DNA from: Myxococcales bacterium
GTDB lineage: Bacteria; Myxococcota_A; Polyangia; Palsa-1104; JAEUJZ01
Direction of reading: 5' to 3'
Assembly (NCBI GenBank): GCA_016794465.1
Contig: JAEUKA010000053.1
Location: 83,999 to 147,998 of the forward strand
DNA length: 64,000 nt
The position numbers were made by a program, and so were the translations under genes. This document shows, one piece after another, positions 4,353 to 51,358 of the stretch (position 1 is its first letter; the number at the start of each line of letters is the position of its first letter). The notes under the pieces are model-generated. The model was not told the origin of the DNA. It did no database searches and worked only from the letters and a program-made list of their open reading frames with translations.

Positions 4353-6025
4353 CGCCGTCCGTTTCGCTCTCTGTTTCGCTGGCTCTTGCGGCGGCACTGC
4401 TGGTCATTCATAGCCTTCAGTTCAACTTCGTCACCGACGATGCGTTCATCTCTTTTGTCTATGCCAAGAACTTGGTGAATCACGGCGCGCTGGTCTTCAA
4501 CTTGGGAGAGCGGGTCGAGGGTTACACCAACTTTTTGTGGACGCTCCTGGTGGCGCTTGGGCTGGCGCTACGGATTCCCGCCGAGCTGTCTTCCCGTGTC
4601 CTGGGAACTCTGTGTGCCGTCGCTACGATGGTATTTTCGGCCTGGCTGTTGCGGCGCCTGCGTGGCGGTTCCTATTCCTTGTGGGACTCGCTGCCGGCGT
4701 GGATCTTGGCGGGAATTCCCGGCTACGCGTGCTGGGCTTCCGGAGGCCTAGAGACGCAGCTCTTTGCCCTCCTGAGTACGCTTGCCATCGGTGGTTATCT
4801 GCATGCCGTGCTGACCGAAAAAGAGGCAGATAAGGCGCCTCTTATTGGTGTCGGAGTCGCGCTGGGCCTGGCGGCGCTAACACGTCCAGAAGGGTATCTG
4901 CTGTGTGCGCTGATCGGTCTGCATCGGCTGACTCTGAAGATCCAGCGGCGCGAGTGGTTGCCGACAAAAGAGGAGTGGAAGATGCTTCTTATTTTCCTTC
5001 TCCTGACGGTGCCGCACATTGTCTGGCGTCGCCTATATTATGGATACTATGTGCCTAATACGTTCTACATCAAGTCATCAGGAGGGCAGGGGACCTGGCA
5101 GCAAGGTGGCTACTATCTGTGGGCGTTTGCGCGCGATTTCAAGCTGTGGGTGCTGCCGCTGCTGTGGTTGTTGGGACTCCTGCGGCCCCTACCTGCATCA
5201 AGCCAGACCGCCATTCCCAACCAGCTTCCACAGTCCCAACAGAGTCCTGTGCTGGCGCAGACTCCGGAGTCATACAAGAGCGGTTACGGACTGTGTGGCG
5301 GACTCCTTTTGCTGTGGGCTGGGCCATTCCTTTTGTACGTCGCTTCCGTCGGTGGTGACTTCATGGGGCTGTATCGGTTTGTGATGCCGATTGTGCCTTT
5401 GGCGGTGCTCGCGGGCGGACTGGGAATCTGGCGACTCCTTCATGATCAACCGCTGCTGCTGCGGGTGGCGGTGCTGCTTTTGGGGGCGGGTCTGCATGGC
5501 GCCAATTCCTATGTGGTGGATCGGCATGCGCTGACGTTTCTTGGTGCCGATCGCGGCATTGATACACCGGGCTATCTGCGTCACTACACGGCGGACCGGG
5601 CGCTGATTGGCAAGTGGCTCGGGCAGCATGTCCAAAAGGATGACTACCAAGTCGTCGGAGGAGCGGGAGCGCAGGTCTATTACGCGGGGATTGCGGCGCT
5701 CGATAGCTTTGGACTGTCCGATGCCTATGTCGCGCATCACGCTCCGGCGGTGTCGAGTCGTCCGGGGCATCAGAAGTTTGCGCCGCTCGACTATGTGCTG
5801 TCGCGGAAGCCGACCATCCTGACCTACAACGTCTACAAGCTGGGCAACGCTCCGTATCGTCCGTCGGCGCAAGAGGAAGCAGAGTGGCGAGCGCGCGGCT
5901 TTCACTACGTCAGCGTGCAGATTCCCGGGCTGTCGCAGCCTTGGTATTCCTTTTTGAAGCGCGTGGATCGGACGCTCGGGCCGCTGCCGTTGGCGTCGGA
6001 CCTGAGCGGCGGAAGCGGTGGCTGA
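4331..6025 (+). CDS. polytopic membrane protein, putative GT-C-type glycosyltransferase
   Basis: The listed ORF 4016..6025 overlaps the upstream gene. The internal ATG at 4331 gives a signal/TM start 'MPASSRVAPSVSLSVSLALAAALLVI'. A 'DDAFISFVYAKN' acidic loop follows TM1, in the way of a GT-C DD/DE motif. There are many TM segments. Confidence 0.4.
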   Translation: MPASSRVAPSVSLSVSLALAAALLVIHSLQFNFVTDDAFISFVYAKNLVNHGALVFNLGERVEGYTNFLWTLLVALGLALRIPAELSSRVLGTLCAVATMVFSAWLLRRLRGGSYSLWDSLPAWILAGIPGYACWASGGLETQLFALLSTLAIGGYLHAVLTEKEADKAPLIGVGVALGLAALTRPEGYLLCALIGLHRLTLKIQRREWLPTKEEWKMLLIFLLLTVPHIVWRRLYYGYYVPNTFYIKSSGGQGTWQQGGYYLWAFARDFKLWVLPLLWLLGLLRPLPASSQTAIPNQLPQSQQSPVLAQTPESYKSGYGLCGGLLLLWAGPFLLYVASVGGDFMGLYRFVMPIVPLAVLAGGLGIWRLLHDQPLLLRVAVLLLGAGLHGANSYVVDRHALTFLGADRGIDTPGYLRHYTADRALIGKWLGQHVQKDDYQVVGGAGAQVYYAGIAALDSFGLSDAYVAHHAPAVSSRPGHQKFAPLDYVLSRKPTILTYNVYKLGNAPYRPSAQEEAEWRARGFHYVSVQIPGLSQPWYSFLKRVDRTLGPLPLASDLSGGSGG

Positions 6026-8626: not shown

Positions 8627-10204
8627 ATGAAACACGGTTCCTCGGTGGCCAAGCTTGCCACTTCACGCACAAGTGTTCGATCAAGACGAGCGCCTCGGCC
8701 TCGTGCTCAGCAGCTGATCGAGAGGAACTCGCAGAGACGATCCAACGACGAGAGTGGCTTCACTCCGTCTCGCAAGCTGGGGCTGCGGGCACTGATTGCT
8801 ACGACGTTCTTTGTCGTCTCGGGCGGGCCGTACGGGCTCGAGGAGATCGTCTCGGGTCATGGCTTCGGCGGAGCGCTGCTGCTGCTCACCATCGTGCCGT
8901 TCATCTGGAGCCTGCCGATTACGCTGATGGTCGGTGAGCTGACGGCGGCGCTGCCGAGCGAAGGTGGTTATTACGCCTGGGCACGACGGGCGCTCGGACC
9001 GTTTTGGGGTGTACAGACGGCGTGGATGGCGCTGGCGATGAGCCTGTTCGACATGGCGATCTACCCGATGCTGGTGGTGACCTATCTGGGGCAGCTGTTT
9101 CCGGCGCTGACCGACTCTGCGGTGGGTGGAGCCGGCTGGTACGCGGCGCTTTCGATGATTGGCCTGTCGGTGTGGTGGAACCTGCGGGGCACCCGTGCCG
9201 TCGGAATTGCCAGTCAGCTGATGGCGGCGGCGCTGCTTCTGCCGTTTGTCATTCTCGTCGCCATTGCGCTCAGTGGACTTGGTCCGGTCACGATGTCCGA
9301 CGGGCTCACGCAGCATCTGCACATTCGCTCGCACAGCGACGGTACGGTCATGCCGTGGATCAACGGGATCTTGCTGTGTCTGTGGAACTACATGGGCTGG
9401 GAGAACGCCTCGCCCGTCGCCACCGAGGTCGAGAATCCGCAGCGAACCTATCCACGCGCGATGCTGTTGACGGTGCTGCTCGTCGCGGGCTGCTATGTGG
9501 TGCCGGTGCTGTGCGGGGTGGCCAGCGGGCTGCCGACGGACGAGTGGACGACGGGCAGCTGGGTCGAGGTTGGTCGCCGGCTTGGTGGACCGTATCTGGC
9601 CGTGGCGATAGCGATAGGCGGAGCGCTGTGTGGGCTCGGGATGTTCAATGCGCTCGTCGGAAGCTACTCGCGGCTGCCGCTGGCGATGGCCCGGGACGGA
9701 ATCTTGCCCAAGTGGCTGGGTCGCAAAGATCCGCAGACCGGCGCGCCGCGTCGCAGCATCCTGTTTGCGGCGGTGCTGTATACCGCGTGCCTGGGGCTGG
9801 GCTTTCAACGCCTGGTGCAGATCGACGTGATGCTGTATGGCGCGCTGGTGGTGCTGGAGTTCGTGTCGCTGATCGTCCTGCGCATTCGTGAGCCGGCGCT
9901 GCTGCGGCCGTTCCGAATGCCGGGTGGAATCGTCGGTGCGGCGCTGCTGGGGTCGATGCCGGTGGCGCTGCTCGGACTGTCGCTGTGGTACGGTCGCCAC
10001 GAGTCGGGCATGTGGGGTCTGTCGGCGGTGACGATCGGGGCTTTGGTGATCGCGCTGGGGCCGGTGTTCTATCTGCTCTCGTGGGGGCTTTCGCGATCTC
10101 GACGGAGTCAGTTGCGGACGGTTACGATCCCGCCCAGCAGCCCTCCAGTCACGCCGCTGCTACCGCCCGTACCGTCGACGCCTAACTTCTCATCTCTTCG
10201 TTGA
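8627..10204 (+). CDS. APC-superfamily amino acid permease
   Basis: ATG at 8627 lies inside the longer ORF 8300..10204, whose N-terminus overlaps the upstream gene. About 12 TM segments. 'TTFFVVSGGPYGLEEIVSG' and '...GGYYAWARRALGPFWG' are typical of amino acid/polyamine transporters. Confidence 0.65.
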   Translation: MKHGSSVAKLATSRTSVRSRRAPRPRAQQLIERNSQRRSNDESGFTPSRKLGLRALIATTFFVVSGGPYGLEEIVSGHGFGGALLLLTIVPFIWSLPITLMVGELTAALPSEGGYYAWARRALGPFWGVQTAWMALAMSLFDMAIYPMLVVTYLGQLFPALTDSAVGGAGWYAALSMIGLSVWWNLRGTRAVGIASQLMAAALLLPFVILVAIALSGLGPVTMSDGLTQHLHIRSHSDGTVMPWINGILLCLWNYMGWENASPVATEVENPQRTYPRAMLLTVLLVAGCYVVPVLCGVASGLPTDEWTTGSWVEVGRRLGGPYLAVAIAIGGALCGLGMFNALVGSYSRLPLAMARDGILPKWLGRKDPQTGAPRRSILFAAVLYTACLGLGFQRLVQIDVMLYGALVVLEFVSLIVLRIREPALLRPFRMPGGIVGAALLGSMPVALLGLSLWYGRHESGMWGLSAVTIGALVIALGPVFYLLSWGLSRSRRSQLRTVTIPPSSPPVTPLLPPVPSTPNFSSLR

Positions 10205-10415
10205 CAGCACATGCCGCTTGCCGTACCGTGATGTGGCTGTAACCAACCAAGATTCGTCCTGAGCAGCTTCTATCGTCATTATCCACACAACCAGCAGTTG
10301 ATTCCCTAAACGCTAGGGCAGACGTCTGCAAGACGAAGCGCGGCCACTTGGGTCAGCGCTGTCAATCGTCTTCGGTCGGCCCTACTTTCGCCCATCCAAC
10401 CGAGGAACGAACCCG
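10205..10415 (+). promoter_or_regulatory. long leader/promoter region upstream of rho
   Basis: 211-bp non-coding gap. 'ttgaca' at 10201-10206. 'gaggaa' RBS sits 8 nt before the rho ATG. rho genes typically have long autoregulatory leaders. Confidence 0.3.
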
Positions 10416-11663
10416 ATGAACCTGACTGAGCTGAAGCGCAAAAAGATGTCCGAGCTGATCCATATGGGTCAAGGGCTCAACATCGAGAACGTCTCTGGCA
10501 TGCGCCGCCAGGACTTGATCTTCGAGATCCTCCGTCATCACTCCTCGCATCGGGGCGAGGTCTTCGGTGATGGCGTGTTAGAGACGCTGCCCGACGGCTT
10601 TGGCTTCCTCCGCTCCCCCGATTACAACTACCTTCCCGGTCCCGATGACATCTATGTTTCGCCGTCGCAGATTCGCCGCTTTGGCCTGCGCACCGGTGAC
10701 ACGGTCGAAGGGCAGATTCGTCCCCCCAAAGACAGCGAGCGTTACTTCGCCCTCCTCAAGGTTGATCGTGTCAATGGCGACGCGCCCGACCACCAGGGCG
10801 AAAAGATCATGTTCGATAACCTGACGCCGCTGTATCCCAATAAGCGGCTCCGGCTCGAGTGGGATCATCGCAACTATTCGACGCGTATTGTCGATATGCT
10901 CGCGCCGATTGGCAAAGGTCAGCGCTGTCTGATTGTCTCGCCGCCGCGCGCTGGCAAGACCGTCCTGCTTCAGGACATCGCCCACGCGATTACCGCCAAT
11001 CATCCCGAGGTCTACCTCATGGTGCTGCTCATCGACGAGCGCCCCGAGGAAGTGACCGACATGCAGCGCACCGTCAAGGGAGAGGTCGTCTCCTCGACGT
11101 TTGACGAGCCACCGGCCCGCCACGTCCAGGTCGCCGAGATGGTAATCGAGAAGGCCAAGCGCCTCGCCGAGTGCAAGCGTGACGTGGTGATCCTGCTCGA
11201 CTCGATCACGCGCCTTGCCCGCGCCTACAACACGGTCGTGCCGCCGTCGGGCAAGATCCTGTCCGGTGGTGTTGACTCGAACGCGCTCCACAAGCCGAAG
11301 CGGTTCTTTGGCGCCGCCCGCAACATCGAGGAAGGCGGCTCGCTGACCATCATCGCCACCGCGCTCGTCGACACCGGCTCGCGCATGGACGAGGTCATCT
11401 TCGAGGAGTTCAAGGGCACCGGTAACTCGGAAATCCACCTTGATCGCAAGCTGATGGAAAAGCGCATCTTCCCGTGCCTCGACATCAACAAGTCGGGTAC
11501 TCGCAAGGAAGAGCTGCTCGTCGACGATCGCTATCTGAACCGCATCTGGATCTTGCGGCAGCTGCTCCACCCGCTCAACGTCGTCGATGCGATGGAGTTT
11601 ATGCGCGACAAGATCGCCAAGACCGACTCGAACGCCGACTTCATCGCTTCGATGTCCGGCTAG
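10416..11663 (+). CDS. rho: transcription termination factor Rho
   Basis: N-terminal '[39 protein letters not shown]' is followed by the RNA-binding and RecA-like ATPase core. 415 aa. Confidence 0.9.
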
Positions 11664-13076: not shown

Positions 13077-14567
<1,491 letters not shown>

Positions 14568-14598
14568 CTGGGTGCGGTTCCTTTCGTGACAGGAGGGC

Positions 14599-16806
14599 TT
14601 ATTTTTGGCGGAGCAGCAGGGCCTCGCCGAGGAGTAGGACCAGCAGCAGCCAGCCCAAGGCGTGCCACAGCTCGACCTTTCGCTTGGGATTTTTGCCGCT
14701 GGGACTTACGTCGTTTTGCAGAAGGGGCCGCTGCAGTGCCGCCAGTCGCGAGGCCGGCGCCAGCTGCAGGTCCGACTCCGCAGCATCGAGGTTGACCGCG
14801 AAGTGCTCACTTGGCCGCGCCTTCAGCACACCGGTATCGCCCGCAGTCGCCACCCGATAGAACCCCGGCTCGCGCGTCTCGGTGAAGCTGAGCAGCTTGC
14901 GACCCTGCAAACGCTCGAACAGGCGGGTCTTCCCCGACGGCAGCGTCACTTCGACCCGGGTGTCCCCCGCCTGCAGCTTGATGTCGCGCGTCTGGCCAAT
15001 CAGCGTCTCCGTCTCGGCCTTTTGCAGCGGCGCCCGCGACAGGTGCCGCACCACCTGCTGCACCAGCGGCAGGAACGCCGGCTGAATCGGCAGATCATTC
15101 CAGTCCCGATCCAGCGTCGAGGTAAACAGCAGCACCCGGCCCCGTCCCACCGTTCGCTCGACCAGCGCCGGCGCCCCACTCTCGAACGACAGGAGCACGG
15201 TTGTCTCACCCTGGCTGCGTGGCGTCGGCTGTAGCAGCAGATAGCGCGCAAACGTCGCCGACAGCAGCGACTCACTGGCCCGGCCCGTCAAAAACGGCTG
15301 GAGCAGCGGATGCCGACGATCCAGCTGTCCCAGATGCTCACCCGGCCCTTGCGTCGAGGACTCCCCTTCGCTCGCCGGATGACTGGGCAGTGACCCCGCC
15401 GTCTTCACCACCGCCAGCGGCTGCGGCAAAAGCTCGGCCAGCACCCGGTTGTAGGCCTCGACCTCGACGTTGTCACCGAGGCCAATCATCAGCCCGCCGC
15501 CGCCCCGCACGTACTCGCTGAGCCCGCGCTCGATGCCCCGTCGCGACAGCTCTTGTGCCTTGGCGTTCAGCAGCACCACCGCGTCGAACTCGCTCAGGCT
15601 GCCCAGCCCTTCATCCAGCGACCGCGTTGACAGCTGTAGCGGCGAGTCGTCCCGCTCACTCGGGCGCAGCGCCGTCTCCAGGTAGTACGCCTCGTCATCA
15701 CGGCGCAGGTTGCGCGGATCGCCATCCAGCACCAGCACCCGCAGCACCGCTTGCACATCGACCCGCAGGTGGCGCTCGTTGTCGGCTTCCAGCGCGTCGG
15801 GAGACAGCCGCACCGCCAGGTGATGCAGGCCCGCGCTCGGTGCCACCTGGGCCTCGGTCTGCCCGGGACTCTGCGTCGGACTGGGCGTCGGCTGCAAGAT
15901 GTGAATGAAGCGCTTGATGGCCTGGCCGCGTGGTGCAAGGTCCACCAGCCCCTTGGCCACTGCCTGCCCGTCCACCAGCAGCGTCACCTGGAGCTCTCTT
16001 CTCGGCTCGTCCCCAAAGTTGCCCAGCTCCGCCATCACTCGCACGGCACGCGGGCCCATGCTGGTCGCCGGCTCGGCCCGCAGGTCCACCACCGCGCAGT
16101 TGGGCAGCGACTTGCCGTCTCGGACATCGACCAGCGACACCTCCGTCTCTGCCGGCGGCTGAAGCGACCCGTCCAGCGAGTGCGCCGAGGTATCGCCAAT
16201 CACGTAGATGCGCCGCAGCCCGCCCCGCTGCGTTGACAGGATCTGCGTCGCTCGCTTAAACGCCGATGGCAGGTCGCTGGGTCGGTAGCTCGGTCGCAGC
16301 GCCGAGATCGCCGAGTACAGCCGCGTCCTGTCCGAGGTCAGCTGCCCCACCGGCGCCTCTGCCGTCCGCGAGCCCAAGATCAGCGCCGCCTCGGCCCCCT
16401 GCGGCAGCGCATCGATGATTCGCGTCGCCAGCTTCCGCCCGCGCTCCAGCAAGATCGTCGAGCCCAGCTTTAAGTCCCCCGCCGGCTGATACATCATCGA
16501 CAAGCTGTCGTCGAAGATCAGCACCGCCCGCTGGGTCTGGCTCACTTGCACCGGCAGATCCGAGTCCGTCTCCGCAAACGGTCGCGCCAGCAGAAACGGA
16601 ATCGCCATCAGCAGCAGCATCCGCAGCAGCAGCAGCAGGATGTGGCGAAACTTGGTCCGCTGCGCCACCCGCCGGTTGCTCGCCTTCAGCAGCAGCAGCG
16701 TCGGCAGCTTGCGGATCTCGGCCCGCCGCCGGCCATGCAGGTGGATCAGCACCGGCAGCACGCCCAGCAAAAGAAAGATCGCGTAGGCCGGCGACAGCAG
16801 CTGCAT
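14599..16806 (-). CDS. BatA-N/VWA domain-containing protein (aerotolerance-type)
   Basis: N-terminal 'LLGVLPVLIHLHGRRRAEIRKLPTLLLLK' double-TM BatA_N motif. Large periplasmic region with vWA-like features. Sits directly downstream of DUF58 and MoxR. Confidence 0.6.
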   Translation of the reverse strand: MQLLSPAYAIFLLLGVLPVLIHLHGRRRAEIRKLPTLLLLKASNRRVAQRTKFRHILLLLLRMLLLMAIPFLLARPFAETDSDLPVQVSQTQRAVLIFDDSLSMMYQPAGDLKLGSTILLERGRKLATRIIDALPQGAEAALILGSRTAEAPVGQLTSDRTRLYSAISALRPSYRPSDLPSAFKRATQILSTQRGGLRRIYVIGDTSAHSLDGSLQPPAETEVSLVDVRDGKSLPNCAVVDLRAEPATSMGPRAVRVMAELGNFGDEPRRELQVTLLVDGQAVAKGLVDLAPRGQAIKRFIHILQPTPSPTQSPGQTEAQVAPSAGLHHLAVRLSPDALEADNERHLRVDVQAVLRVLVLDGDPRNLRRDDEAYYLETALRPSERDDSPLQLSTRSLDEGLGSLSEFDAVVLLNAKAQELSRRGIERGLSEYVRGGGGLMIGLGDNVEVEAYNRVLAELLPQPLAVVKTAGSLPSHPASEGESSTQGPGEHLGQLDRRHPLLQPFLTGRASESLLSATFARYLLLQPTPRSQGETTVLLSFESGAPALVERTVGRGRVLLFTSTLDRDWNDLPIQPAFLPLVQQVVRHLSRAPLQKAETETLIGQTRDIKLQAGDTRVEVTLPSGKTRLFERLQGRKLLSFTETREPGFYRVATAGDTGVLKARPSEHFAVNLDAAESDLQLAPASRLAALQRPLLQNDVSPSGKNPKRKVELWHALGWLLLVLLLGEALLLRQK

Positions 16807-16809
16807 CGC

Positions 16810-17769
16810 TTACCTCCGCACCTTCTGTCGCAGCGGCCCGCGCAGAAGGTCCAGCAGCACACTCTCTGGCGACCGCGACGTGGGAGTAAGCGAGTAGTCG
16901 ACATCACCCTCGCGCAGCCCCAGCCGCGTGTCGGTCAGGAACTGCCCCAGCTCGGTCAGGTAGGCCTTGCGGACATCGCCCGGATCGACAAACAGCCGCT
17001 CCTGACCGGCCAGGCCCGGCTCGACTTCCTCGAACCACGTCAGGCTCGTCCACGGCAGCTCCAGCTCATCGGCATCGAGGATCTGCAGCACGATCACGTC
17101 GTGTTTCTGCGCCCGCAGGCTGACCAGCTTCGCCCGCAAGAGCGCCGACTGCCGCCGCAGGTAGTCCCCGTAGTCCACCCCTTCATCGAGCGGCGGTGGC
17201 GGTAGCAGATCCGACAGCACCACAATCAGCGAGCGCCGCCGCGCCGTCTCGGACAGCAGGTGCAGCGCGTCGTCCAGCTCGGTCCGCCCCGCCGGCTCCG
17301 TGCTCTCCAGCGCCCGACACAGATCCCCCAGGTGCGCCGAGCCCCCACGCGGCGGGATGTACAGCGGCCCGGTGTCCTTGGCAATCACCAGCCCCGCCGG
17401 GTCATGCTGCCGCAGCAAGAGGTACGACAGCGACGCCCCAATCAGCGACGCAAAGTCCAGCTTGGTCAGCTGATCCTGCCGCCCATAGCCCATCGAGCCC
17501 GAGCTATCGACGACGATGTACGAGCGGACCTCGGCCTCTTCCTCGAAGCGCTTGACGTAGTACTTGTCCATCCGGCCCCAGGCCCGCCAGTCGATGTGGC
17601 GCAGCTCGTCGCCGGGTGCGTACTCCTTGTGCTCGGCAAACTCGACCGACGAGCCGTGATGCGCCGCCCGGTGCAGCCCCTGCAAGGCTCCCTCGGCGAC
17701 CAGGCGCGCGCGCAGCGTCAAGCTCTGAAGCTTGAGCAGCGACGGAAGGTCCAGCAGCCTCGAGGTCAT
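16810..17769 (-). CDS. DUF58 domain protein (MoxR partner)
   Basis: 'GSSVEFAEHKEYAPGDELRHIDWRAWGRMDKYYVKRFEEE' DUF58 signature. 4-nt gap to the VWA gene. Confidence 0.7.
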   Translation of the reverse strand: MTSRLLDLPSLLKLQSLTLRARLVAEGALQGLHRAAHHGSSVEFAEHKEYAPGDELRHIDWRAWGRMDKYYVKRFEEEAEVRSYIVVDSSGSMGYGRQDQLTKLDFASLIGASLSYLLLRQHDPAGLVIAKDTGPLYIPPRGGSAHLGDLCRALESTEPAGRTELDDALHLLSETARRRSLIVVLSDLLPPPPLDEGVDYGDYLRRQSALLRAKLVSLRAQKHDVIVLQILDADELELPWTSLTWFEEVEPGLAGQERLFVDPGDVRKAYLTELGQFLTDTRLGLREGDVDYSLTPTSRSPESVLLDLLRGPLRQKVRR

Positions 17770-17778
17770 GACGAAAGA

Positions 17779-18954
<1,176 letters not shown>

Positions 18955-18980
18955 GACCGCATTGTGACACAGAAATCCCC

Positions 18981-19835
18981 TTACGGAGTGCGCACACCAT
19001 CCACCGGCACAAGCGGCGCCGGAGCCGGCTCGGGCTCACCAGGGTCGCGGCGGCGGCTCTGGCGGGCGCCTAGGGTGGGGACTTTTTCATCGACGGCCTC
19101 GCCGAACAGGTAGAAGCCGGCCTTGCGCAGCTCACCGTGCCGCAGCAAAAGCAGCGAGAAGATGCGATCACGCTCGTCCTGCGCCTTCTGCGCCGCCACC
19201 GCCACCGTCGTCCGCGCGCCATCGGGCGTGACCAGCTTCATCAGCGCATGTCCAAGCTCTGCCGTCCGCGCCACCTGCGCATCGGTAAACGGGTGCTTGC
19301 CGGCAATCTGACTGCGATACGCCCCATACAAGTCCGCCAGCGCCACCCCATCCTGCGCCGCATCAAACAGCCCCTTGCCAGCCCGGATTTGGGCGACCAG
19401 CGACTCGGGGATGATGCCTTCCAAGGCAAACACCTCGGCTTGCAGGAGCAGCTTCTCGCGCAGGCGCAAAAGCTCGGTCAGCTTGGCATCGATCTCGGCG
19501 CGCTTGGCGGGCTGGGTCAGCCGGGCTGCTTCGGCGTGGGCGTAGAGCAGCGCCTCGGCCAGCGTCTGGAGCTTGGCCAGCTCTGCGGTCGGCAGCTTGG
19601 GCAGCTCGGCGGCCAAGCGATCGAGGAACGGCTGCACCGACTGCACGCCCTGCTGGACGTTGGCGAAGATCAGGTTCACGTCGAGCCGAAGCGGCAGGAC
19701 CTTCTCTTGGGGCAGTGCCAGGGCCGCCGCCACAAACGCCTCGTAGCTCTTCTTGAGCGAGGGGGCGTCGGGCGCGGCGGGCACTGGCTTGGGTGAGGTA
19801 GGGGCGGGTGACTTGGTTGTAGGTTTTTTGGCCAT
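18981..19835 (-). CDS. hypothetical protein (start at the internal ATG 'MAKKPTTKS')
   Basis: The ATG at 19835 is preceded by a P/A/T-rich low-complexity N-terminus. No recognised domain. Lies upstream of the MoxR operon on the same strand. Confidence 0.4.
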   Translation of the reverse strand: MAKKPTTKSPAPTSPKPVPAAPDAPSLKKSYEAFVAAALALPQEKVLPLRLDVNLIFANVQQGVQSVQPFLDRLAAELPKLPTAELAKLQTLAEALLYAHAEAARLTQPAKRAEIDAKLTELLRLREKLLLQAEVFALEGIIPESLVAQIRAGKGLFDAAQDGVALADLYGAYRSQIAGKHPFTDAQVARTAELGHALMKLVTPDGARTTVAVAAQKAQDERDRIFSLLLLRHGELRKAGFYLFGEAVDEKVPTLGARQSRRRDPGEPEPAPAPLVPVDGVRTP

Positions 19836-20220
19836 GTCACCTGAGGTAGCACCAGATCTGCGCGGCGCAACCCTCAAGCCCAAAATAGTCACGACTCGAT
19901 CCTGGCACCTTCCAGCTTGCGGCCCCAAAGGCGCAGGTCTTCCCCCGCCACCTTGCGCGAGTCACCCCAGCAAGCTTCCGATCATCCCCCGCCGCAATCC
20001 GGTAGGCGCCCGCCAAGACCCAAGTCATCCCCACCGCAACCCGCTACCCACCCCCCCAAGACCCAAATCATCCCCGTGCGCCTTCCGCTAGCTGCCGGTT
20101 TCCTGCCGTGCCTGGTTGGGTTGTTTCCGACCGATGGGGTTTCGCTGAGCGACCGGCCCCAGCCTCGGCGCCGTGCCGCACGTTCTTGAGGCTGACTCGC
20201 TCGCGTGCTACGTCACCGCC

Positions 20221-21558
20221 GTGTACATCAAGACCCTTACCGCCCAGAACTTCCGCTGCTTTACCGACCTCCAGATCGACTTCCAGCCTGGCTTCAACCT
20301 GCTGATCGGCGACAACATGTCCGGCAAAACAGCAGTCCTCGACGCCCTTCGGATTTGTCTCAACGGATATGTGAACACGTTTTTTCAAAGCAAAATAGAT
20401 ATTGAAAAGCTCGATGCCAGGTTGCTTCCAGTTCCGATGGGTGATGCCGTCGAAATGGTAAGCCAGTCTCCTGCATCTGTTCTAGCAACGGTTGAGTTTG
20501 AACAGAAATTTCTGGACCTCTGCAAGAGCATTTTCCCTGTAATGTCACATGATGAATCTGTGAGAACATGGGGGCAGACGCTCGCATCGACCAAAGAGGG
20601 AACGGTTCTTACGAAGAAAGGTGGTTTGGGAGGGATTGGCGTACTTGCTCAATCTGCTATTTCAAATATTGAGCTGATGTTGCCGATCTTCTCATTTCAC
20701 TCTACCAATCGAAATACGCAACCTATTCCTAGCGCACAAAATGAACAGATAGAGCAATCGGCTTTGGCCAATCGAGGGCGGGGTTATTTGAACAGCTTGA
20801 GCCATTACTCTATTTTGCAAACTATACATTCGTGGATTGAGCGTCGTACAATGTCTGAGATGCAGCGGAAGGGGCGTGGACTTCCGCTGCTTGCGGAAGG
20901 GCCGTTGCTTGGAATCGAGCGCGCAGTGTGTACCTGTCTGCCAGAGGTGAAACAGTTCTACTTTGACTTCGATTATCAACAGCTAGCGATCGTGTTTGCG
21001 GACGGGCGGCGGCTGCCGGTGAGCATGCTGAGCGATGGGATGCTCTGTGTACTGAGTTTGGCGCTCGAGCTGGCCTGGCGGGCGGTGGTGTTAAACCCGC
21101 ACCTGGGGGCGCAGGCGCCAGAGCGGGCGACGGGGATTGTGATGATTGATGAGCTGGATCTGGCGCTGCACCCGACCTGGCAGCGGCGGATTGTGGCGGA
21201 TCTGTCGCGGGCGTTTCCCCGCTTGCAGTTCATTGCGACGACGCACTCGCCGCAGATCATCGGCAGCGCCAAGAATGCGCTGGTCCAGAAGATCGACGGC
21301 GACAAGGTGCAGGCGGTGGCGCGGCCCTATGGGCTGGACAGCAACACCCTGCTGACGGAAGTGATGGGCGCCCAGGAGCGCGACCCGGCGATCGTCAAGC
21401 TGTTTGAGAAGGTAAATGACCTCATGAACGACAAGCGCTGGGACGAGGCCCGCGCCGCCCTGGCCCAGGTCACCGACCAGATCGACAGCCTGGATACCGA
21501 GGTCGTGGATCTACGGACTCGTATCGACTTCCTAAGCCGAGCCGCCAAGCGGAGCTAG
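20221..21558 (+). CDS. AAA_21/AAA_15-type P-loop ATPase, Septu PtuA-like
   Basis: 'IKTLTAQNFRCFTDLQIDFQPGFNLLIGDNMSGKTAVLDAL' is an SMC/ABC-like Walker A N-terminus. '...IDELDLALHPTWQRRIVADLSRAFPRLQFIATTHSPQIIGS' is a Walker B / D-loop / H-loop C-terminus. The start is either GTG 20221 or GTG 20173. The central part of the gene is markedly lower GC. Confidence 0.55.
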   Translation: MYIKTLTAQNFRCFTDLQIDFQPGFNLLIGDNMSGKTAVLDALRICLNGYVNTFFQSKIDIEKLDARLLPVPMGDAVEMVSQSPASVLATVEFEQKFLDLCKSIFPVMSHDESVRTWGQTLASTKEGTVLTKKGGLGGIGVLAQSAISNIELMLPIFSFHSTNRNTQPIPSAQNEQIEQSALANRGRGYLNSLSHYSILQTIHSWIERRTMSEMQRKGRGLPLLAEGPLLGIERAVCTCLPEVKQFYFDFDYQQLAIVFADGRRLPVSMLSDGMLCVLSLALELAWRAVVLNPHLGAQAPERATGIVMIDELDLALHPTWQRRIVADLSRAFPRLQFIATTHSPQIIGSAKNALVQKIDGDKVQAVARPYGLDSNTLLTEVMGAQERDPAIVKLFEKVNDLMNDKRWDEARAALAQVTDQIDSLDTEVVDLRTRIDFLSRAAKRS

Positions 21559-21560
21559 CA

Positions 21561-22208
21561 ATGCGTCGTATCGAGAAACGACCAGAGCCCAGCTCGCTTA
21601 CGCGAGAGCGGATGGATGGGAACTGTTACGGCGATCTACGCAAAGAAACGCGGCAGGCGATACAGAAACAGCTCTGCGACGAACAGAAATATCTGTGTAG
21701 CTTCTGTGAAAGCCGCATCGAACCTGACGGGAAGTCGATGAAGATTGCCCACTTTGTGCCCCGCTCGGTGGACCAGTCGCTGTCTTTGGTTTGGCACAAT
21801 CTGTACGGTGCCTGTTACGGAAACGAACCTTCATCGAACCAAGCCGAGAGTGAGAAGAGTATTGCCAGGCGAGATGTTACCGAAGACGTTGCCTTGCACT
21901 GTGATGCCAAGCAAGGTAGCAAGTGTCTAGATACACGACTACGTCCCGACTCGATAGCCACTGGCCTGATTCAATTTCAGCAAGATGGTACGGTCTATTG
22001 CCAGGATCTCAATCTTGACAAAGATATAAACGCAAAGCTCAACCTCAATCATCCCCGGCTCAAGAAGAATCGTCTGCGTGCGCTCAAGCGTCTTATTGCG
22101 GACGAAACGCTAACCGGGATACCTGCTGACGAGCTGGTCCAGCAAGGGCTGGCGGACGACGGACGGCTGCGTCCCTATCTGAGCTATTTGCTAGCAATGG
22201 TGGGATAA
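21561..22208 (+). CDS. HNH (His-Me finger) endonuclease, TIGR02646/PtuB-like
   Basis: 'CSFCESRIEP...KIAHFVPRSVDQS...WHNLYGAC' is an HNH-family motif pattern. The ATG lies 2 nt after the ATPase stop, so the two genes form an operon. Confidence 0.5.
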   Translation: MRRIEKRPEPSSLTRERMDGNCYGDLRKETRQAIQKQLCDEQKYLCSFCESRIEPDGKSMKIAHFVPRSVDQSLSLVWHNLYGACYGNEPSSNQAESEKSIARRDVTEDVALHCDAKQGSKCLDTRLRPDSIATGLIQFQQDGTVYCQDLNLDKDINAKLNLNHPRLKKNRLRALKRLIADETLTGIPADELVQQGLADDGRLRPYLSYLLAMVG

Positions 22209-22233
22209 GTGGGAAGACCCGCTGAGCTAACCC

Positions 22234-23019
22234 CTACCCGTGCACCTTCTTGCCGAACTCTCTTATCCACTTTTCTTCTTCGGGGGTGAGGGGGCCTTTT
22301 TCTAGGGCGTCGAGGTTTTGTTCTAGCTCGGCGCGGCTGGCGGGGCCGGTGAGGGCGAGGTCGACGTGGGGGCTGGAGAGCTGGAAGCGGTAGCAGTCGC
22401 CGGCAGACATGACCGGGCCGTCCCAGCCGCGCGGGCGCTTGAGGAGCTTGCCCCAGCGGGTGGCGGTGTAGGCGAGGATGCTCGGCTTCTTGTCTTTGAC
22501 GTGGGGGAAGATGTCGCGCTCGGCACCGGGGTGGGCGGCGTTGTAGCGGATCATCAAGAGGTCGAGCGGGGACGAGGCGGCGAGCTGGCCGGCGCGCTCG
22601 CGGTTGTGGATGCTGCAGCCGATGGCGCGGACCTTGCCGCTCTCGCGCAGGTGGACGAGCTCTTTTTCGGTGGCGGCGGTCCAGGCCGAGGTGATGCCAA
22701 GCCAGCCGAGGAGGTACACGTCGAGGTAATCGACCTTGAGCTCCTTGAGCAGGTTCTCGGCGCCCTGGCGGACGCCCCAGCCGAACCAGCCGATGGTGCT
22801 GTAGCCGATGACGGCGACCTGCTCGCGGCGGCTGTGCAGGGCCTCGCCGAGGGGGGCGCGGAAGGGCTTGTTCTTCATCGTCCACAGGAAGACGTTGACG
22901 CCGCGCTCCATGGCGAGGCGGACGCCGGACTCGTCGATGCCGTAGTTGCAGGCGAGCCCGAGGCGGTGCAGCTTCTTGCTTGGAAACGCGGTCGGGTGTC
23001 GGTAGAGCCAGTCGGTCAT
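22234..23019 (-). CDS. aldo/keto reductase family oxidoreductase
   Basis: '...VDYLDVYLLGWLG...' AKR-like TIM-barrel motifs. 261 aa. Confidence 0.65.
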   Translation of the reverse strand: MTDWLYRHPTAFPSKKLHRLGLACNYGIDESGVRLAMERGVNVFLWTMKNKPFRAPLGEALHSRREQVAVIGYSTIGWFGWGVRQGAENLLKELKVDYLDVYLLGWLGITSAWTAATEKELVHLRESGKVRAIGCSIHNRERAGQLAASSPLDLLMIRYNAAHPGAERDIFPHVKDKKPSILAYTATRWGKLLKRPRGWDGPVMSAGDCYRFQLSSPHVDLALTGPASRAELEQNLDALEKGPLTPEEEKWIREFGKKVHG

Positions 23020-23049
23020 GGGTGCCTCCAGGCGGTTGCGGCAGGGGAC

Positions 23050-23433
23050 TTAACTGTGGCGGAGGAATCCTATCGTGGCGCTAACGCCGTTGGCGAGTAA
23101 CGAGCACAGCAGGGCGTAGCGCAGGCCGGCAAAGTGCATCCAGCAGGCTTCGACGACCACCGCGAAGGTCTCGGCGACTGCGACCATCGGCCAGTAGTCG
23201 TCGATGAAGCGAGGAAAGACGTACCACACCCACGGATGGGTCAGGCTGCTGGCGGCAAAGGCGACCAGCAGGCGCAGGGCCAGACCGAGCGGTGGGACGG
23301 CGGGATCGGGCCTTCGCCACAGCGGTCGTGCCGGCAAGAGCGTCAGCAGCAGCGTGTAGATCGGCACCTCGATGGCCTGCGTCAGCCAAAAGGCGCGCCA
23401 CCACAGCTGCTCGTACGTCAAGGGGGCGGTCAT
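23050..23433 (-). CDS. small hypothetical membrane protein
   Basis: 127 aa with 3-4 hydrophobic helices. Placement is compact between the AKR and kinase genes. Confidence 0.35.
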   Translation of the reverse strand: MTAPLTYEQLWWRAFWLTQAIEVPIYTLLLTLLPARPLWRRPDPAVPPLGLALRLLVAFAASSLTHPWVWYVFPRFIDDYWPMVAVAETFAVVVEACWMHFAGLRYALLCSLLANGVSATIGFLRHS

Positions 23434-23442
23434 CGCAGCAGC

Positions 23443-24681
<1,239 letters not shown>

Positions 24682-24781
24682 GGTGGATGCGCGAGCAAAT
24701 CTCCGAAGCTCATTTACTTTATCAAACCATCGTCGAAAGATGGCTCGCTTTTTCAATCTTCACGGGCAAGGAGCCGCAGTC

Positions 24782-25837
24782 ATGCAGACCAGCACAAGCG
24801 CAACATCGGCGTCGGGAAGCCGGAAATCTGTGCGGGACAAGCGAGCCAAGCTCCGACTGTTTGGCGGCCTGGGCGCGAGCCTAAGCCTTTGCTTGGCCCT
24901 TTCCGGCTGCGGCCCTGTTGGCAGCGAGCTGGGCGGCGAGGAACCGGACACGCTGCTCCAGCCGCTCGGCTGCAAGGGCGCGCCGTATCCGGTCATCTTG
25001 GCCCACGGCTTTGCCGGCTTTGAGCGCATCGGCCCGCTGAACTACTTCTTTCAGGTCGGTGCCGATCTGCGCAGCCGGGGCGAGACGGTGGTCGAAGCGA
25101 AGGTGCCGCCCTACGAGTCGTCGGATGTCAGGGCCAAGGCGCTCGGGGTGATCATCGACGATACGCTGAAGACCTACAACGCCTGCAAGGTCAACCTGAT
25201 CGGGCACTCGCAAGGCGGTATCGATGGTCGCGCGGTGATAAGCGGCCTGGGCTACGGGTCGAAGGTGGCGTCGCTGACGACTGTCAGCAGTCCGCACCGA
25301 GGCACCGAGGTCGCCGACGTGGTCAGCGGGCTGGTGCCGGGCTTTTCGTACGATGTGATCAACGCGATCTTGAAGGCGCTGACGGGAGTGACCGACTCGC
25401 CGGGAAGTCCCAACCTGAAGGCGGCGCTGGGGCAGCTGACGACACCGGGCATGCAGCGCTGGAATGCCGCTCATCCCGACGACGTGCGGGTCAAGTATTA
25501 CAGCGTGGCGGGGCGATCGGTGGGGCGGATTGCCAGCAGTGAGTGTGCGGGTGGGGCGTGGGGAAACTCGGTGCGGATCGATCTGCTTGATCCGTTGCTG
25601 GCGATTCCCGAGGGTGTGTTTGCGCTCTACAGTGACAACCCGCTGCTGCCGCGTCCCAATGACGGCCTGGTGACAGTGCAGTCGTCAAAGTGGGGCAAGT
25701 TCCTGGGCTGTGTGCCGGCGGATCATCTTGACGAGGTCGGTCAGATTGGGCACCTGTTTCCCGACCTTATCAGCGGCTTTTCGCACAAAGAGCTGTATCG
25801 AAAGATCGTCGCCGAGCTTCGCAAGGACGGCTTCTAG
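24782..25837 (+). CDS. secreted triacylglycerol lipase-like alpha/beta hydrolase (lipoprotein)
   Basis: 'aaggag' RBS 8 nt upstream of the ATG at 24782. Lipobox 'LALSGC'. Nucleophile elbow 'GHSQGG'. Confidence 0.65.
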   Translation: MQTSTSATSASGSRKSVRDKRAKLRLFGGLGASLSLCLALSGCGPVGSELGGEEPDTLLQPLGCKGAPYPVILAHGFAGFERIGPLNYFFQVGADLRSRGETVVEAKVPPYESSDVRAKALGVIIDDTLKTYNACKVNLIGHSQGGIDGRAVISGLGYGSKVASLTTVSSPHRGTEVADVVSGLVPGFSYDVINAILKALTGVTDSPGSPNLKAALGQLTTPGMQRWNAAHPDDVRVKYYSVAGRSVGRIASSECAGGAWGNSVRIDLLDPLLAIPEGVFALYSDNPLLPRPNDGLVTVQSSKWGKFLGCVPADHLDEVGQIGHLFPDLISGFSHKELYRKIVAELRKDGF

Positions 25838-25849
25838 CAAGGACACGCT

Positions 25850-27517
25850 GTGGCGACTCAGGTAGAGATTTTTGTGCCGCTCACGGAGCTGGCGAAAGAC
25901 GAGGACGGGGCGGTTCATCACGATCCCGAGCAGGCGCTGTGGGCGCTGGCGATGCTCGAGGCGTCGCGGCGGGCAGGCATTCCCAAGGTGGGTGGGGTGC
26001 GGCTGCTGCGCAAGTCGCTCGATGCGCGCAAGGGCTTTCCGATCGGCTATCGGCTGCAAGTCGAGGTCTTTCCCGAGGGTGCTGAGCTGCCGCCGTCCTG
26101 TTCGCGCATCGAGCTTCATCGGCCCGGTGGACAGGGGAGCTGGCCGCTTCTGCAAGGGGGGAGCCTGCGCCTGCCGAAGGTTGCGCCGCTGACGGTGAAG
26201 AAGCGGGTGGTGATCGTCGGTAGTGGCCCGGCGGGAACGCTGTGTGCGAAGCGCCTGTGCGAGGCCGGAGTCGAGGTGATCTTGCTGGAGCAAGGGCAGC
26301 CGGTGCAGCCGCGTCGTCATGATCTGGCGCAGCTGGTGCGGGGCGCGCTGGTCGAGGACTCGAACTACTGCTTTGGCGAGGGCGGGGCGGGGACGTTTAG
26401 CGACGGCAAGCTCTACACCCGCAGCAAGGATCGGGCGGCGATTGGCGAGACGCTCTTGACCCTGGTCGAGCATGGCGCCGATCCGCGCATCAGTGTCGAG
26501 TCGCGACCGCACATTGGCAGCAACCGCTTGCCGAAGATCCTGCTCGGGCTGCGGGCCGATCTGACGGCGCGCGGGGTGGTCTATCACTTCGGGGAAAAGG
26601 TGGTCGATTTGCTGCGCTCGCCGTCGGGAAAGCTGCTCGGGGTGCGCTGTCAGTCGGGGATGGAGGTGCTGGCTGACGCGGTGGTGCTGGCGGTCGGACA
26701 CAGCGCGCGATCGATCTATGAGCTGATGGTGGCCCAGCACATTGTCGTCGAGCGCAAGGCGTTTGCGATCGGCGCGCGGATCGAGCATCCCCAGCCGCTC
26801 ATCGATCGCATCCAGTACGGTCCGGCGGCGGAGCATCCGGCCCTGCCAGCGGCGTTTTATCAAGTGGCAGCTTCCGTCGGTGATCGTGGCGTCTATAGCT
26901 TCTGCATGTGTCCCGGCGGCTGGGTGGTCCCAAGCGCCACCGAGCCCGGCGGTCTGTGCGTAAACGGCATGAGCCTGAAGCGTCGGGACTCGCCGCTGGC
27001 CAACAGTGCGCTGGTGGTTTCCGTCGAAGATCGCGATGTCGTACCGTTCGAGCGCTTTGCCGGAGATCCGCTGGCCGGGATGTTTTTTCAGCGCGCCATC
27101 GAGCAGGCGGCGTTTGTGGCCGGCGGTGGTCGCTTTGTGGCCCCGGCGCAGAAGCTGACCGACTTTTTGGCGGGCCGTCCCAGTACCGAGCTGCTGCCGA
27201 CGACCTATCGACCGGGCATTGCCTCTGGCAACCTCGCGGCGCTGCTGCCGCCGTTTGTCAGTGAGTCGCTGCGCCAAGCGGTCGGGCGGTTTCAGCGGAC
27301 CATGCCGGGCTTTGTGTCGCCGCAGGCGCAGCTGGTTGGGGTCGAGACGCGCACCTCGTCACCGCTGCGGATTGTCCGAGGCGAAGACCTGCAGTCGCCA
27401 TCGCTTCCTGGGCTGTTTCCCGTTGGTGAGGGTGCAGGTTATGCCGGTGGAATCGTCAGTGCTGCGATTGATGGGCTGCGCAGCGCGGATGCCGTCCTGT
27501 CGTATTTGCGAGGTTAA
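25850..27517 (+). CDS. FAD-dependent oxidoreductase (COG2509-like)
   Basis: 'VVIVGSGPAGTLCAKRLCEAGVEVILLE' dinucleotide-binding motif. 555 aa. Confidence 0.65.
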   Translation: MATQVEIFVPLTELAKDEDGAVHHDPEQALWALAMLEASRRAGIPKVGGVRLLRKSLDARKGFPIGYRLQVEVFPEGAELPPSCSRIELHRPGGQGSWPLLQGGSLRLPKVAPLTVKKRVVIVGSGPAGTLCAKRLCEAGVEVILLEQGQPVQPRRHDLAQLVRGALVEDSNYCFGEGGAGTFSDGKLYTRSKDRAAIGETLLTLVEHGADPRISVESRPHIGSNRLPKILLGLRADLTARGVVYHFGEKVVDLLRSPSGKLLGVRCQSGMEVLADAVVLAVGHSARSIYELMVAQHIVVERKAFAIGARIEHPQPLIDRIQYGPAAEHPALPAAFYQVAASVGDRGVYSFCMCPGGWVVPSATEPGGLCVNGMSLKRRDSPLANSALVVSVEDRDVVPFERFAGDPLAGMFFQRAIEQAAFVAGGGRFVAPAQKLTDFLAGRPSTELLPTTYRPGIASGNLAALLPPFVSESLRQAVGRFQRTMPGFVSPQAQLVGVETRTSSPLRIVRGEDLQSPSLPGLFPVGEGAGYAGGIVSAAIDGLRSADAVLSYLRG

Positions 27518-50725: not shown

Positions 50726-50818
50726 GCACGAGCCTCGGTGGAGGCTTTGGATGTAAACAGAGCTTTCGCTGACTTTGGGTTGTCTGGGCTCGCTTCGCTT
50801 TGCTTCCTGTTGCGGACA

Positions 50819-51222: not shown

Positions 51223-51358
51223 CTGTATTTTTTTGGGTTCTTGCTTGCGTGGCTGCTGGCGACTGTGGAATCGATGAAGAGACAGCTATCCGCAGAAATG
51301 GCCGGTAACGCCGCTTGGATCTTCTTCGTGGGACCGAGACGGCAAGGAGGCAGTGCAG

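Follow-up and report, generated by a model that had tools for sequence, protein, structure and literature searches.

Why would a single gene in a GC-rich genome have a sharply AT-rich middle? We addressed this question in a 64,000-nucleotide stretch of DNA (hereafter, the window) from an uncultured lineage labelled Myxococcales. A sequence-only reading of the window had proposed that the central part of an ATPase gene was either acquired from a low-GC donor or was under diversifying pressure. All of the features that we describe are on the forward strand. The patch is real: positions 20340-20960 have a GC content of 0.477, as compared to about 64% for the window as a whole (not the 70% or so that had been supposed). 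Across 621-bp sliding windows of the entire 64 kb, the mean GC content is 0.640 (sd 0.032), and the minimum, 0.469 at 20361-20981, is about 5 sd below that mean. The second-lowest stretch (21661-22281, at 0.52) lies in the region of the HNH gene just downstream, which does have reduced GC, as had been remarked (0.528, with a GC3 of 0.574).

The compositional fall is located at synonymous sites. GC3, the GC content at third codon positions, is 0.476 in the patch (206 codons) versus 0.835 in the rest of the open reading frame (255 codons; Fisher p = 1.9e-16). As a control, 207-codon windows in 24 other open reading frames of the window have a mean GC3 of 0.807 (sd 0.052) and a minimum of 0.647. 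Along the gene, GC3 is 0.83-0.90 until about 20350, 0.37-0.50 at about 20330-20900, and about 0.6 until 21010, and then it is 0.77-0.93, so the gene has high GC at both ends, as the sequence-only reading had it.

The gene is ptuA, which encodes the ABC-type ATPase of Septu. Together with ptuB, it forms a Septu (PtuA-PtuB) anti-phage operon whose defence activity we predict from the genes. ptuA spans 20173..21558 and could begin at the GTG at 20173 (the JGI call, 461 amino acids) or the GTG at 20221 (the NCBI call, 445 amino acids). ptuB, which encodes the HNH nuclease, spans 21561..22208, and its reading frame begins 3 nt beyond the ptuA stop. Every sequence or fold feature of Septu that we looked for was found. 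First, the PADLOC profile for PtuA (PDLC00278) matches the ptuA product at full length (residues 18-453 of 461, E = 1.4e-97), and Pfam finds AAA_15, AAA_21, and SMC_N domains. Second, the expected motifs are present: Walker A (GDNMSGKT, 20308..20331), which is invariant in our alignment of the clade; the ABC signature motif (LSDGM, 21028..21042, from the translation and the clade alignment); Walker B (IVMIDELD, 21136..21159); and the H-loop histidine (in TTHSP, codon 21244..21246), which is H342 and is also invariant. Third, the adjacent ptuB matches the PADLOC profile for PtuB (PDLC00322, E = 5.2e-40) and NCBIfam TIGR02646 (score 57.5, cutoff 52.15). Finally, the AlphaFold model of PtuA (pLDDT 94.8) has as its best PDB matches the PtuA of Septu from E. 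coli (8EEA and 8EE4; TM 0.70-0.78, E down to 1.9e-30), with the PtuA proteins of retrons ranking behind these. The E. coli system (8EE4, 8EE7, and 8EEA; Li et al. 2024, as cited in PMC13096335) likewise pairs an ABC-type ATPase gene with an HNH nuclease gene directly behind it. The family profile matches the full-length PtuA of 8EE4 (E = 1e-108), the predicted fold matches best to 8EEA (TM 0.78), and both proteins are without N-terminal or coiled-coil additions, although they share only about 25% of their sequence. Elsewhere, Septu is described as a hexamer of PtuA with PtuB, as an ATP-inhibited nuclease, and as protecting against phage.

The middle of PtuA is hypervariable. Our comparison covers seven types of this segment, and the relatives of the window are all short metagenome contigs. 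Across the seven alleles, the core of the variable segment (20340..20800, with GC remaining low to about 20960) has amino acid identities of just 18-45%, as compared to 79-99% in the backbone. Similarly, the six closest relatives have 76-92% amino acid identity in the flanks and 33-44% in the middle. Identity at four-fold degenerate sites is near random in the middle (0.29-0.33) versus 0.54-0.80 in the flanks. The dip in GC3 is present in all six of these relatives (0.2-0.5 versus 0.8-0.95), and the core has a GC3 of 0.2-0.5 in each of the seven alleles. Local nucleotide identity correlates with GC3 (Spearman 0.83, p = 2e-8).

These comparisons make it very improbable that the middle was acquired once, from a low-GC donor, in the lineage of the window. 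Such an event could explain the sharp step in composition near 20340 and the high GC at both ends of the gene. But the same dip occurs in 6/6 relatives, each with a different middle, and the seven alleles of the clade do not differ in how AT-rich they are. Also, the N-terminal, middle, and C-terminal thirds of the gene have the same closest relatives, and searches with HMMER and of phage and plasmid collections (see below) did not identify a donor. Finally, the cassette of the window is found on another backbone as well.

This last point brings us to the evidence for recombination. Contigs L092 and L001 share 98-100% nucleotide identity along 5.3 kb, apart from about 20320-21105 (in the coordinates of the window), where L092 is instead 97-100% identical to the window. 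The same window-type tract sits on L001-type operons in L109 and L110, and in all three contigs it includes over 300 consecutive informative sites of the window type between runs of L001-type sites. The left breakpoint falls after 20295, where the last L001-type site lies, and before 20337, where window-type sites begin (an interval of 20296-20336), which spans the DNA that encodes Walker A. The right breakpoint is at 21072/21075, just 3' of the signature motif, which sits where the cassette is conserved at its right margin; the conserved backbone with high GC3 restarts at Walker B. The exchanged cassette is 20337..21072, or amino acids 39-284 of the 445-amino-acid protein. There are other swaps. 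L007 and L009 have 98-100% nucleotide identity at the ends of ptuA and 95-100% in ptuB, with 28-50% in the middle, and their swap terminates at the equivalent of 21060. L004 and L005 show the same pattern.

Could these mosaics be chimeras that formed when co-occurring strains were assembled across conserved stretches? Every relative comes from a short-read assembly, and one sample (Ga0154020) contains both the L092-type contig and a contig with the ptuB type of the window (L095). However, the breakpoints of L092 are identical in L109 and L110, which are independent ENA assemblies from different projects, so they are not an assembly artefact. Furthermore, the P0002, P0004, P0005, and P0006 alleles and that of the window were each seen in at least two independent samples. 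We consider chimeras to be barely conceivable as the explanation.

Another idea is that point mutation and selection diversified the middle in place, with no recombination. The middle is indeed the least conserved part of PtuA across the family (17-30% identity in distant relatives). Nevertheless, fast amino acid change cannot saturate the synonymous sites of the middle while flanks are up to 100% identical at the nucleotide level, nor does it account for discrete breakpoints that are common to several assemblies or for the runs of informative sites in three-way comparisons. And within a cassette type, changes at third codon positions predominate: across the 621 nt of the patch, the window and L092 differ by 12 substitutions, of which 8 are at third positions. 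This suggests that evolution within a type is conservative, instead of continuous hypermutation. We strongly doubt the point-mutation scenario. As for the broader proposal of diversifying pressure, it holds up in spirit, in that the high polymorphism is as would be expected under diversifying or balancing pressure.

The variation might also be programmed, by a diversity-generating retroelement, by a shufflon or invertase, or by silent donor cassettes like those of pilins. There is a superficial likeness, as each would give a hypervariable segment inside a conserved gene. But neither blastn nor tblastx turned up another copy of the patch, whole or partial, within the 64 kb, and its flanks have no convincing inverted repeats. 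We scanned ten neighbouring proteins (13077-19928 and 22234-27517) with Pfam. Nine of them, with the five nearest among these, showed no reverse transcriptase or recombinase, matching other families or, for the upstream gene, nothing; the tenth (23050-23433) has no Pfam match. Also, copies of the window-type cassette are 98-99.9% identical across samples, which implies that it is stable. Programmed diversification seems hardly credible here.

A second part of the operon is exchangeable as well. Although the window and L092 are 97-100% identical at the nucleotide level across the cassette, identity falls to 42-80% over about 21330-22200. This second module, the 3' tail of ptuA and all of ptuB (21329..22228), is an allele unlike that of L092 and L001 despite the shared cassette; conversely, L095 has the window's type of ptuB (94%). 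The identity matrices for the cassette, the backbone, and PtuB are mutually incongruent. The cassette and the ptuB module reassort independently. The description of ptuA as a mosaic gene, with a middle whose history is unlike that of its P-loop and H-loop ends, is thus borne out by breakpoints in conserved DNA, by saturation that is confined to the middle, and by swaps in independent assemblies.

What does the variable segment do? It had been taken for a central insertion domain, perhaps a coiled coil. Instead, in the predicted structure, it forms the main part of the ABC-ATPase head, from Walker A up to the signature motif, and contains both strands and helices. Stand-alone Septu PtuA proteins are without the coiled-coil domain found in retron PtuA (PMC12673091), and unlike retron PtuA, the model of our protein lacks both the N-terminal domain and the coiled-coil or helical flap. 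The PtuA of type I-A retrons (Ec78/Eco7 and Ec83; 9KJX, 9NNB, and 9E8Z) does have a homologous ATPase head and a PtuB partner, and the lobe that follows its Walker A bears the loops that contact msDNA (PMC12819146). That lobe corresponds to the hypervariable region here. For example, the residues of Ec78 PtuA that contact msDNA (K119, R126, and R163; PMC12819146) map to about amino acids 56-100, within the cassette, given an approximate profile offset of 63 (this is not a structural superposition). The structural position and the mapping of these contacts suggest that the cassette sets what Septu recognises. On the other hand, PMC12673091 cites a proposal of Li et al. 2024 that the E. coli system responds to ATP depletion and not to a protein trigger. 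In that case, the hypervariable lobe could serve in escape from inhibitors or in contacts within the oligomer, not in sensing.

Taken together, we think that the patch is quite probably the hypervariable core of a recombining allelic cassette of about 0.75 kb in ptuA. This clade has many deeply diverged alleles of the cassette on near-identical operon backbones. Homologous recombination swaps them, with crossovers in the conserved Walker A DNA on the left and in the DNA of the signature motif or of the helix before Walker B on the right, and the 3' tail of ptuA and ptuB reassort as a second, independent module. The cassette would encode the exposed lobe of the ATPase head, the counterpart of the part of retron-type PtuA to which the regulatory msDNA binds, so this surface is probably where PtuA engages a trigger, substrate, or inhibitor that derives from phage. 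In that case, balancing or negative-frequency-dependent selection, driven by phage, would keep many old alleles in circulation.

Why would such a cassette be AT-rich? Higher GC3 has been described for bacterial genes that recombine (PMC4450053). Our preferred reading is that the old alleles have become too diverged to recombine internally, so that they may escape the force, selective or linked to recombination, that holds GC3 near 0.8 in this genome and then drift towards an AT-biased mutational equilibrium. In its strongest form, the lobe after Walker A would be the specificity determinant of Septu, drawn from a shuffled library of ancient alleles, and the AT-richness would be the decay of balanced alleles that are cold for recombination. 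We rate this combined reading as rather unlikely.

Alternatively, the pool of cassettes may pass through lower-GC hosts or mobile elements, in which case repeated imports would have left a foreign composition that has yet to ameliorate. This would account for each cassette having a GC1, as well as a GC3, that is much lower than in the host. It is also in keeping with the finding of PtuA homologues in hosts of all GC contents (including L108, a relative from the sister clade, at 49% GC) and with the mobility of the Septu module in a defence hotspot (see below). Yet no relative of the cassette turned up outside of the clade. When we compared the 150-amino-acid core to 1.84 billion representative proteins with HMMER, there was one marginal match (E = 7e-4), to an unrelated protein of 1858 amino acids; this is a weak negative for a donor because the library has one representative per cluster at 50% identity. 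No relative of the cassette was found in a phage collection, and a plasmid collection gave just a match from Bacillus, at 28% identity. The GTDB genomes that we scanned contained no member of the clade, and the best match there was 35% identical. (A word-indexed database of 5.8 billion proteins returned nothing for the middle segment, not even the self match, which is uninformative.) Furthermore, donors of lower GC would be expected to have low-GC flanks that match poorly, but the observed crossovers are in near-identical DNA, and the documented swaps are between high-GC backbones. Last, import does not easily explain why seven mutually saturated cassettes have one composition, with T > A ~ G > C at third positions. 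We view a lower-GC pool as possible but doubtful.

It is also conceivable that the nucleic acid itself, as DNA or RNA, has a function that preserves the AT-rich stretch. For example, a xenogeneic silencer might bind it and hold a toxic operon in check, or it might contain an internal ptuB promoter. Silencers typically target AT-rich tracts in GC-rich genomes, and there is a sigma-70-like site inside the patch, at 20823-20852. However, the two promoter-like sites are not significant, as 0.8 are expected and chance matches are common in AT-rich DNA, and Rfam has no match. Also, GC3 tracks the divergence of the alleles window by window, a pattern that speaks for an evolutionary process and not for an element in a set position. 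This alternative seems improbable to us.

How general is this pattern? In an unrelated clade of Septu from Pseudomonas, L022 and L043 have 78-92% nucleotide identity in the flanks and 31-57% in the middle, with a GC3 dip as well, which suggests that such cassettes are a general property of the family. A strong dip is absent from the sister clade (L106 and L107) and from most of the 78 diverse PtuA loci, from the GTDB scan, that we used as a family-wide control. What sets the clade studied here apart from E. coli Septu is an exchangeable cassette, AT-rich and hypervariable, that runs from Walker A to the signature motif; a limited search of the Septu literature gave no account of one in PtuA.

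Outside of Septu, the closest parallel may be the mod genes of Type III restriction-modification systems in Haemophilus and Neisseria (PMC1557822). These have a hypervariable central target recognition domain, alleles that recombine through their flanks, and mosaic isolates with mapped breakpoints, and the variable region was read as the determinant of specificity. The target recognition domains of hsdS, in Type I systems, are another parallel. The ptuA cassette shares the deeply diverged alleles, the conserved flanks, and the homologous exchange. The likeness is an analogy in evolutionary mode and not family membership: the variable domain of mod recognises DNA for a methyltransferase, it is not the head of an ABC ATPase, and mod phase-varies via repeat tracts. 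Where the text of PMC1557822 uses GC-content terms, base composition is treated for whole mod-res genes only and not for the hypervariable region.

If the decay reading is true, then ptuA would be a natural demonstration, within a single gene, that forces linked to recombination actively maintain high GC3 in bacteria. Separately, the tight coupling of divergence to GC3 within one gene offers a clean test of what keeps GC-rich genomes GC-rich, and it is a caution that a low-GC patch need not imply recent foreign import. Septu is widespread, and it is debated whether the signal that it recognises is ATP depletion, phage DNA, or tRNA-Tyr. Nature has provided near-isogenic pairs of operons that differ in the 0.75-kb cassette (L007/L009 and L001/L109/L110), so the question of specificity is directly testable, and the mapped junctions are defined cut points for engineering chimeras.

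The Septu module as a whole (the leader, ptuA, and ptuB; 20114..22228) is an accessory insertion. Contigs L096, L099, L100, and L101 are 99% identical to the window and track it through 20113, beyond which they have a HEC-02 gene pair in place of the Septu genes, and from 22229 on they match the window again. So the module itself is mobile within a defence hotspot. There are no tRNA genes nearby. We considered whether the upstream gene, which encodes 284 amino acids, might be a third component of Septu, but it heads a MoxR/DUF58/BatA operon of the host and has the same sequence in strains without Septu. It has no match in PADLOC or Pfam.

We also considered a type I-A retron, given some 43-nt repeats in the area and PADLOC matches to retron I-A. 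We rejected this because Pfam finds no reverse transcriptase in the ten neighbours, no Rfam family matches 19700-22400 at E <= 1, the score against the NCBIfam model for retron PtuA (NF041760) is 191.7 bits versus a cutoff of 500, and the repeats are outside the module. The 43-nt repeats are upstream of the operon. They are degenerate: Tandem Repeats Finder missed them in the window and detected them in its relatives.

The ATPase gene ptuA (20173-21558) contains the most AT-rich stretch of the window. Averaged over 200 bp, GC is 0.63-0.70 ahead of it, drops to 0.45-0.50 at about 20300-20950, and is back to 0.66-0.68 by 21000. The patch itself, at 20340-20960, has a GC of 0.477, and it overlaps the lowest 621-bp value in the 64 kb (0.469 at 20361-20981; average 0.640, sd 0.032). 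So the patch that was noticed in the sequence-only reading is real, although the background is about 64% GC and not about 70%. Most of the drop is at silent sites: GC3 along the ORF is 0.83-0.90, then 0.37-0.50, then 0.77-0.93, which bears out the claim that both ends of the gene are high in GC. GC3 in the 206 codons of the patch is 0.476, versus 0.835 in the other 255 codons of ptuA (Fisher p = 1.9e-16), and 207-codon windows of 24 other ORFs average 0.807 (sd 0.052, minimum 0.647). The next gene, ptuB, holds the second-lowest GC stretch (0.52 at 21661-22281). The next-lowest stretches, at 4781-5401, 50751-51371, and 10201-10821 (0.567-0.573), are far milder.

The system belongs to Septu. PtuA matches PADLOC PDLC00278 over its full length (E = 1.4e-97) and Pfam AAA_15, AAA_21, and SMC_N; ptuB (21561-22208) encodes an HNH nuclease that matches PADLOC (E = 5.2e-40) and exceeds the TIGR02646 cutoff. 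The top PDB match of PtuA, by sequence and by profile, is the E. coli Septu PtuA, and its AlphaFold model (pLDDT 94.8) matches 8EEA at a TM of 0.78, above every retron PtuA. A retron-Septu was ruled out: there is no reverse transcriptase among the neighbors (Pfam) and no RNA family (Rfam), PtuA has neither an N-terminal domain nor a coiled coil, and its score of 191.7 is well short of NCBIfam's retron-PtuA cutoff of 500. NCBI lists this protein as MBL9043029.1, from a "Myxococcales bacterium" MAG. The start calls differ, with 461 amino acids at JGI and 445 at NCBI. Ahead of the GTG at 20221, 48 nt (20173-20220) are kept in several relatives both as DNA and in translation (LEADSLACYV); they may be coding sequence that extends the N terminus, or a conserved leader.

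To its six closest relatives (P0002-P0007), the PtuA of the window is 82-92% identical across the N-terminal 39 residues, 76-84% across the Walker-B/H-loop block, and 65-89% across the C-terminal tail, but only 33-44% identical in the middle. Every within-clade pair has this pattern: amino acid identity is 18-45% in the hypervariable core (20340-20800) versus 79-99% in the backbone. When codons are aligned, four-fold sites agree at a rate of 0.54-0.80 in the flanks but of 0.29-0.33, or nearly random, in the middle, so the middles must be far older than the flanks. All six relatives' operons have a GC3 trough in ptuA (0.2-0.5 versus 0.8-0.95), followed by a milder one in ptuB, and all seven cassettes have the same third-position composition (T > A ~ G > C). 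Because the trough is found in six of six relatives, each with a divergent middle, we rule out a one-off import; the low-GC donor that had been suggested is not demonstrated, and acquisition from one in a single event is unlikely. Also, when the N-terminal, middle, and C-terminal thirds of PtuA are searched separately, they share the same nearest relatives.

On the other hand, the description of ptuA as a mosaic gene was right, as recombination can be seen directly among the loci that we compared (labeled with L numbers). For example, L007 and L009 are 98-100% identical at the 5' end of ptuA, have two mismatches in its last 500 nt, and are 95-100% identical in ptuB, but are 28-50% identical in the middle of ptuA, and the block of dense differences stops at the equivalent of 21060. 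L004 and L005 are 93-100% identical in most flanking windows and 25-50% in the middle. L092 and L001 are 98-100% identical over 5.3 kb, but identity falls to 27-80% around 20320-21105, a stretch in which L092 instead matches the window at 97-100%. Judged by informative sites, L092 switches type between 20295 and 20337 and again between 21072 and 21075. These breakpoints recur unchanged in L109 and L110, which are independent ENA assemblies, and the remaining combinations of cassette and backbone were found again in separate samples, so assembly chimerism is unlikely.

The cassette (20337-21072) is not the only module. L092 and the window share a cassette but differ in the 3' tail of ptuA and in ptuB (42-80% nucleotide identity from about 21330; 42-75% within ptuB). 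The ptuB gene has modules of its own: between L004 and L005, the N-terminal two-thirds differ and the 3' end is 95-100% identical. Thus, the modules reassort independently. The ptuA tail moves together with ptuB as a second module (21329-22228), in keeping with the C terminus of PtuA being known to contact PtuB (PMC12819146). Within one cassette type there are few changes (12 in 621 nt between the window and L092, 8 of them at third positions), which argues against ongoing hypermutation. A search of the window found no silent copies of the patch and no convincing flanking inverted repeats, and there are no tRNA genes nearby.

The exchanged tract encodes amino acids 39-284 of the 445-residue PtuA. 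It begins where the Walker A helix ends, takes in several strands and helices, and stops just beyond the signature motif. It includes a conserved TNR motif (residues 162-164), while its hypervariable core (about 47-203) has only a handful of invariant residues. It had been proposed that this was an insertion domain, perhaps a coiled coil, but that is wrong: the predicted structure places these strands and helices in the ATPase head. The coiled-coil domain found in retron PtuA is absent from stand-alone Septu PtuA (PMC12673091). For P0005, the most divergent allele, the model retains the overall fold (pLDDT 90.8); its predicted secondary structure differs at about 95-150, with low confidence. 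The msDNA-contacting residues of the retron-type Ec78 PtuA (K119, R126, and R163; PMC12819146) map approximately, with a profile offset of 63, to residues 56-100, which suggests that the cassette may form a surface that faces a ligand, trigger, or inhibitor.

The closest likeness in evolutionary mode is to the Type III mod genes, whose hypervariable central region of 594-750 nt is exchanged by recombination while its flanks are conserved, and has been read as a target recognition domain (PMC1557822). The target recognition domains of hsdS are also alike in this respect. Among the Septu and retron-Septu papers that we consulted, none mentions such a cassette in PtuA. These natural isogenic swaps make the specificity of Septu testable.

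Why are the cassettes AT-rich? Old alleles that cannot recombine internally might escape a force that holds GC3 high, which would be either linked to recombination (compare PMC4450053) or selective, and drift to an AT-biased mutational equilibrium. This drift would fit the composition that all of the cassettes share, the graded right boundary (20800-21100, with identity of 65-80% and GC3 of 0.5-0.75), and the correlation across the clade between local nucleotide identity and GC3 (Spearman 0.83, p = 2e-8). Within a single gene, ptuA gives a clear example of GC3 that follows the age of the alleles. Alternatively, the cassettes could circulate in lower-GC hosts or mobile elements. We found no such source among HMMER cluster representatives or in phage and plasmid collections, but these are weak negatives, and a word-index search with the middle segment failed even to match itself. 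The DNA itself could also have a function, for instance in binding a silencer or as an internal promoter, though this lacks support.

Near-identical ptuA ends with a hypervariable middle also occur in independent Septu clades from Pseudomonas (L022, L043, and L016) and Methylococcaceae (L028 and L085). L022 and L043 are 78-92% identical at the nucleotide level in the flanks and 31-57% in the middle, with GC3 of about 0.3-0.5 in the middle versus 0.65-0.8. The Methylococcaceae pair has no dip, as GC3 in the host is about 0.45 to begin with, and a sister clade in high-GC hosts (L106 and L107) has none either. So the dip accompanies hypervariability in GC-rich hosts. Across 78 diverse PtuA loci from GTDB, the middle-minus-flank difference in GC3 has a mean of just -0.06 for hosts with more than 60% GC, and the minimum over all 78 is -0.24. 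The Pseudomonas and Methylococcaceae clades would be tractable systems for testing what the cassette does.

Septu itself comes and goes. Among contigs that are 99% identical to the window, four (L097, L102, L103, and L104) have the same ptuA, while four others (L096, L099, L100, and L101) lack Septu: they diverge at 20113, rejoin at 22229, and in between have two genes that PADLOC identifies as a HEC-02 pair. Both systems are present on a backbone that is about 95% identical (L092, L001, L109, and L110), so this lineage has at least three states: Septu only, as in the window, the HEC-02 pair only, or both. L109 also has an AbiEii gene, and at its left end L092 carries coding sequence for the tail of a further AAA_15/21-type ATPase. 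Because Septu is present, absent, or replaced among near-identical contigs, 20114-22228 is an accessory module in a defense hotspot. The module junctions (20113/20114 and 22228/22229 in the window) have in common a short motif resembling CCG(T/A)G(C/T)CT.

To the right of the module is an aldo-keto reductase. To the left, on the minus strand, a gene for a 284-amino-acid protein (18981-19835) heads an operon of MoxR, DUF58, and BatA/VWA genes. This protein is conserved, with a Lys/Pro-rich N-terminal tail, and has homologs in many metagenomes (43-100% identity) but no match in Pfam or PADLOC. The divergent promoter region between this gene and ptuA contains a tandem array of 42- to 44-nt repeats (19938-20090), which lies outside the Septu module, as strains without Septu retain it. 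There are 5.2 copies in L004 (156-374), 3.7 in L009 (708-866), and 4.4 in L011 (1671-1863); in the window, L001, and L092, the 3-4 copies are degenerate and escape TRF. The units vary by backbone group, but the period and a ATCATCCC-like start are conserved.
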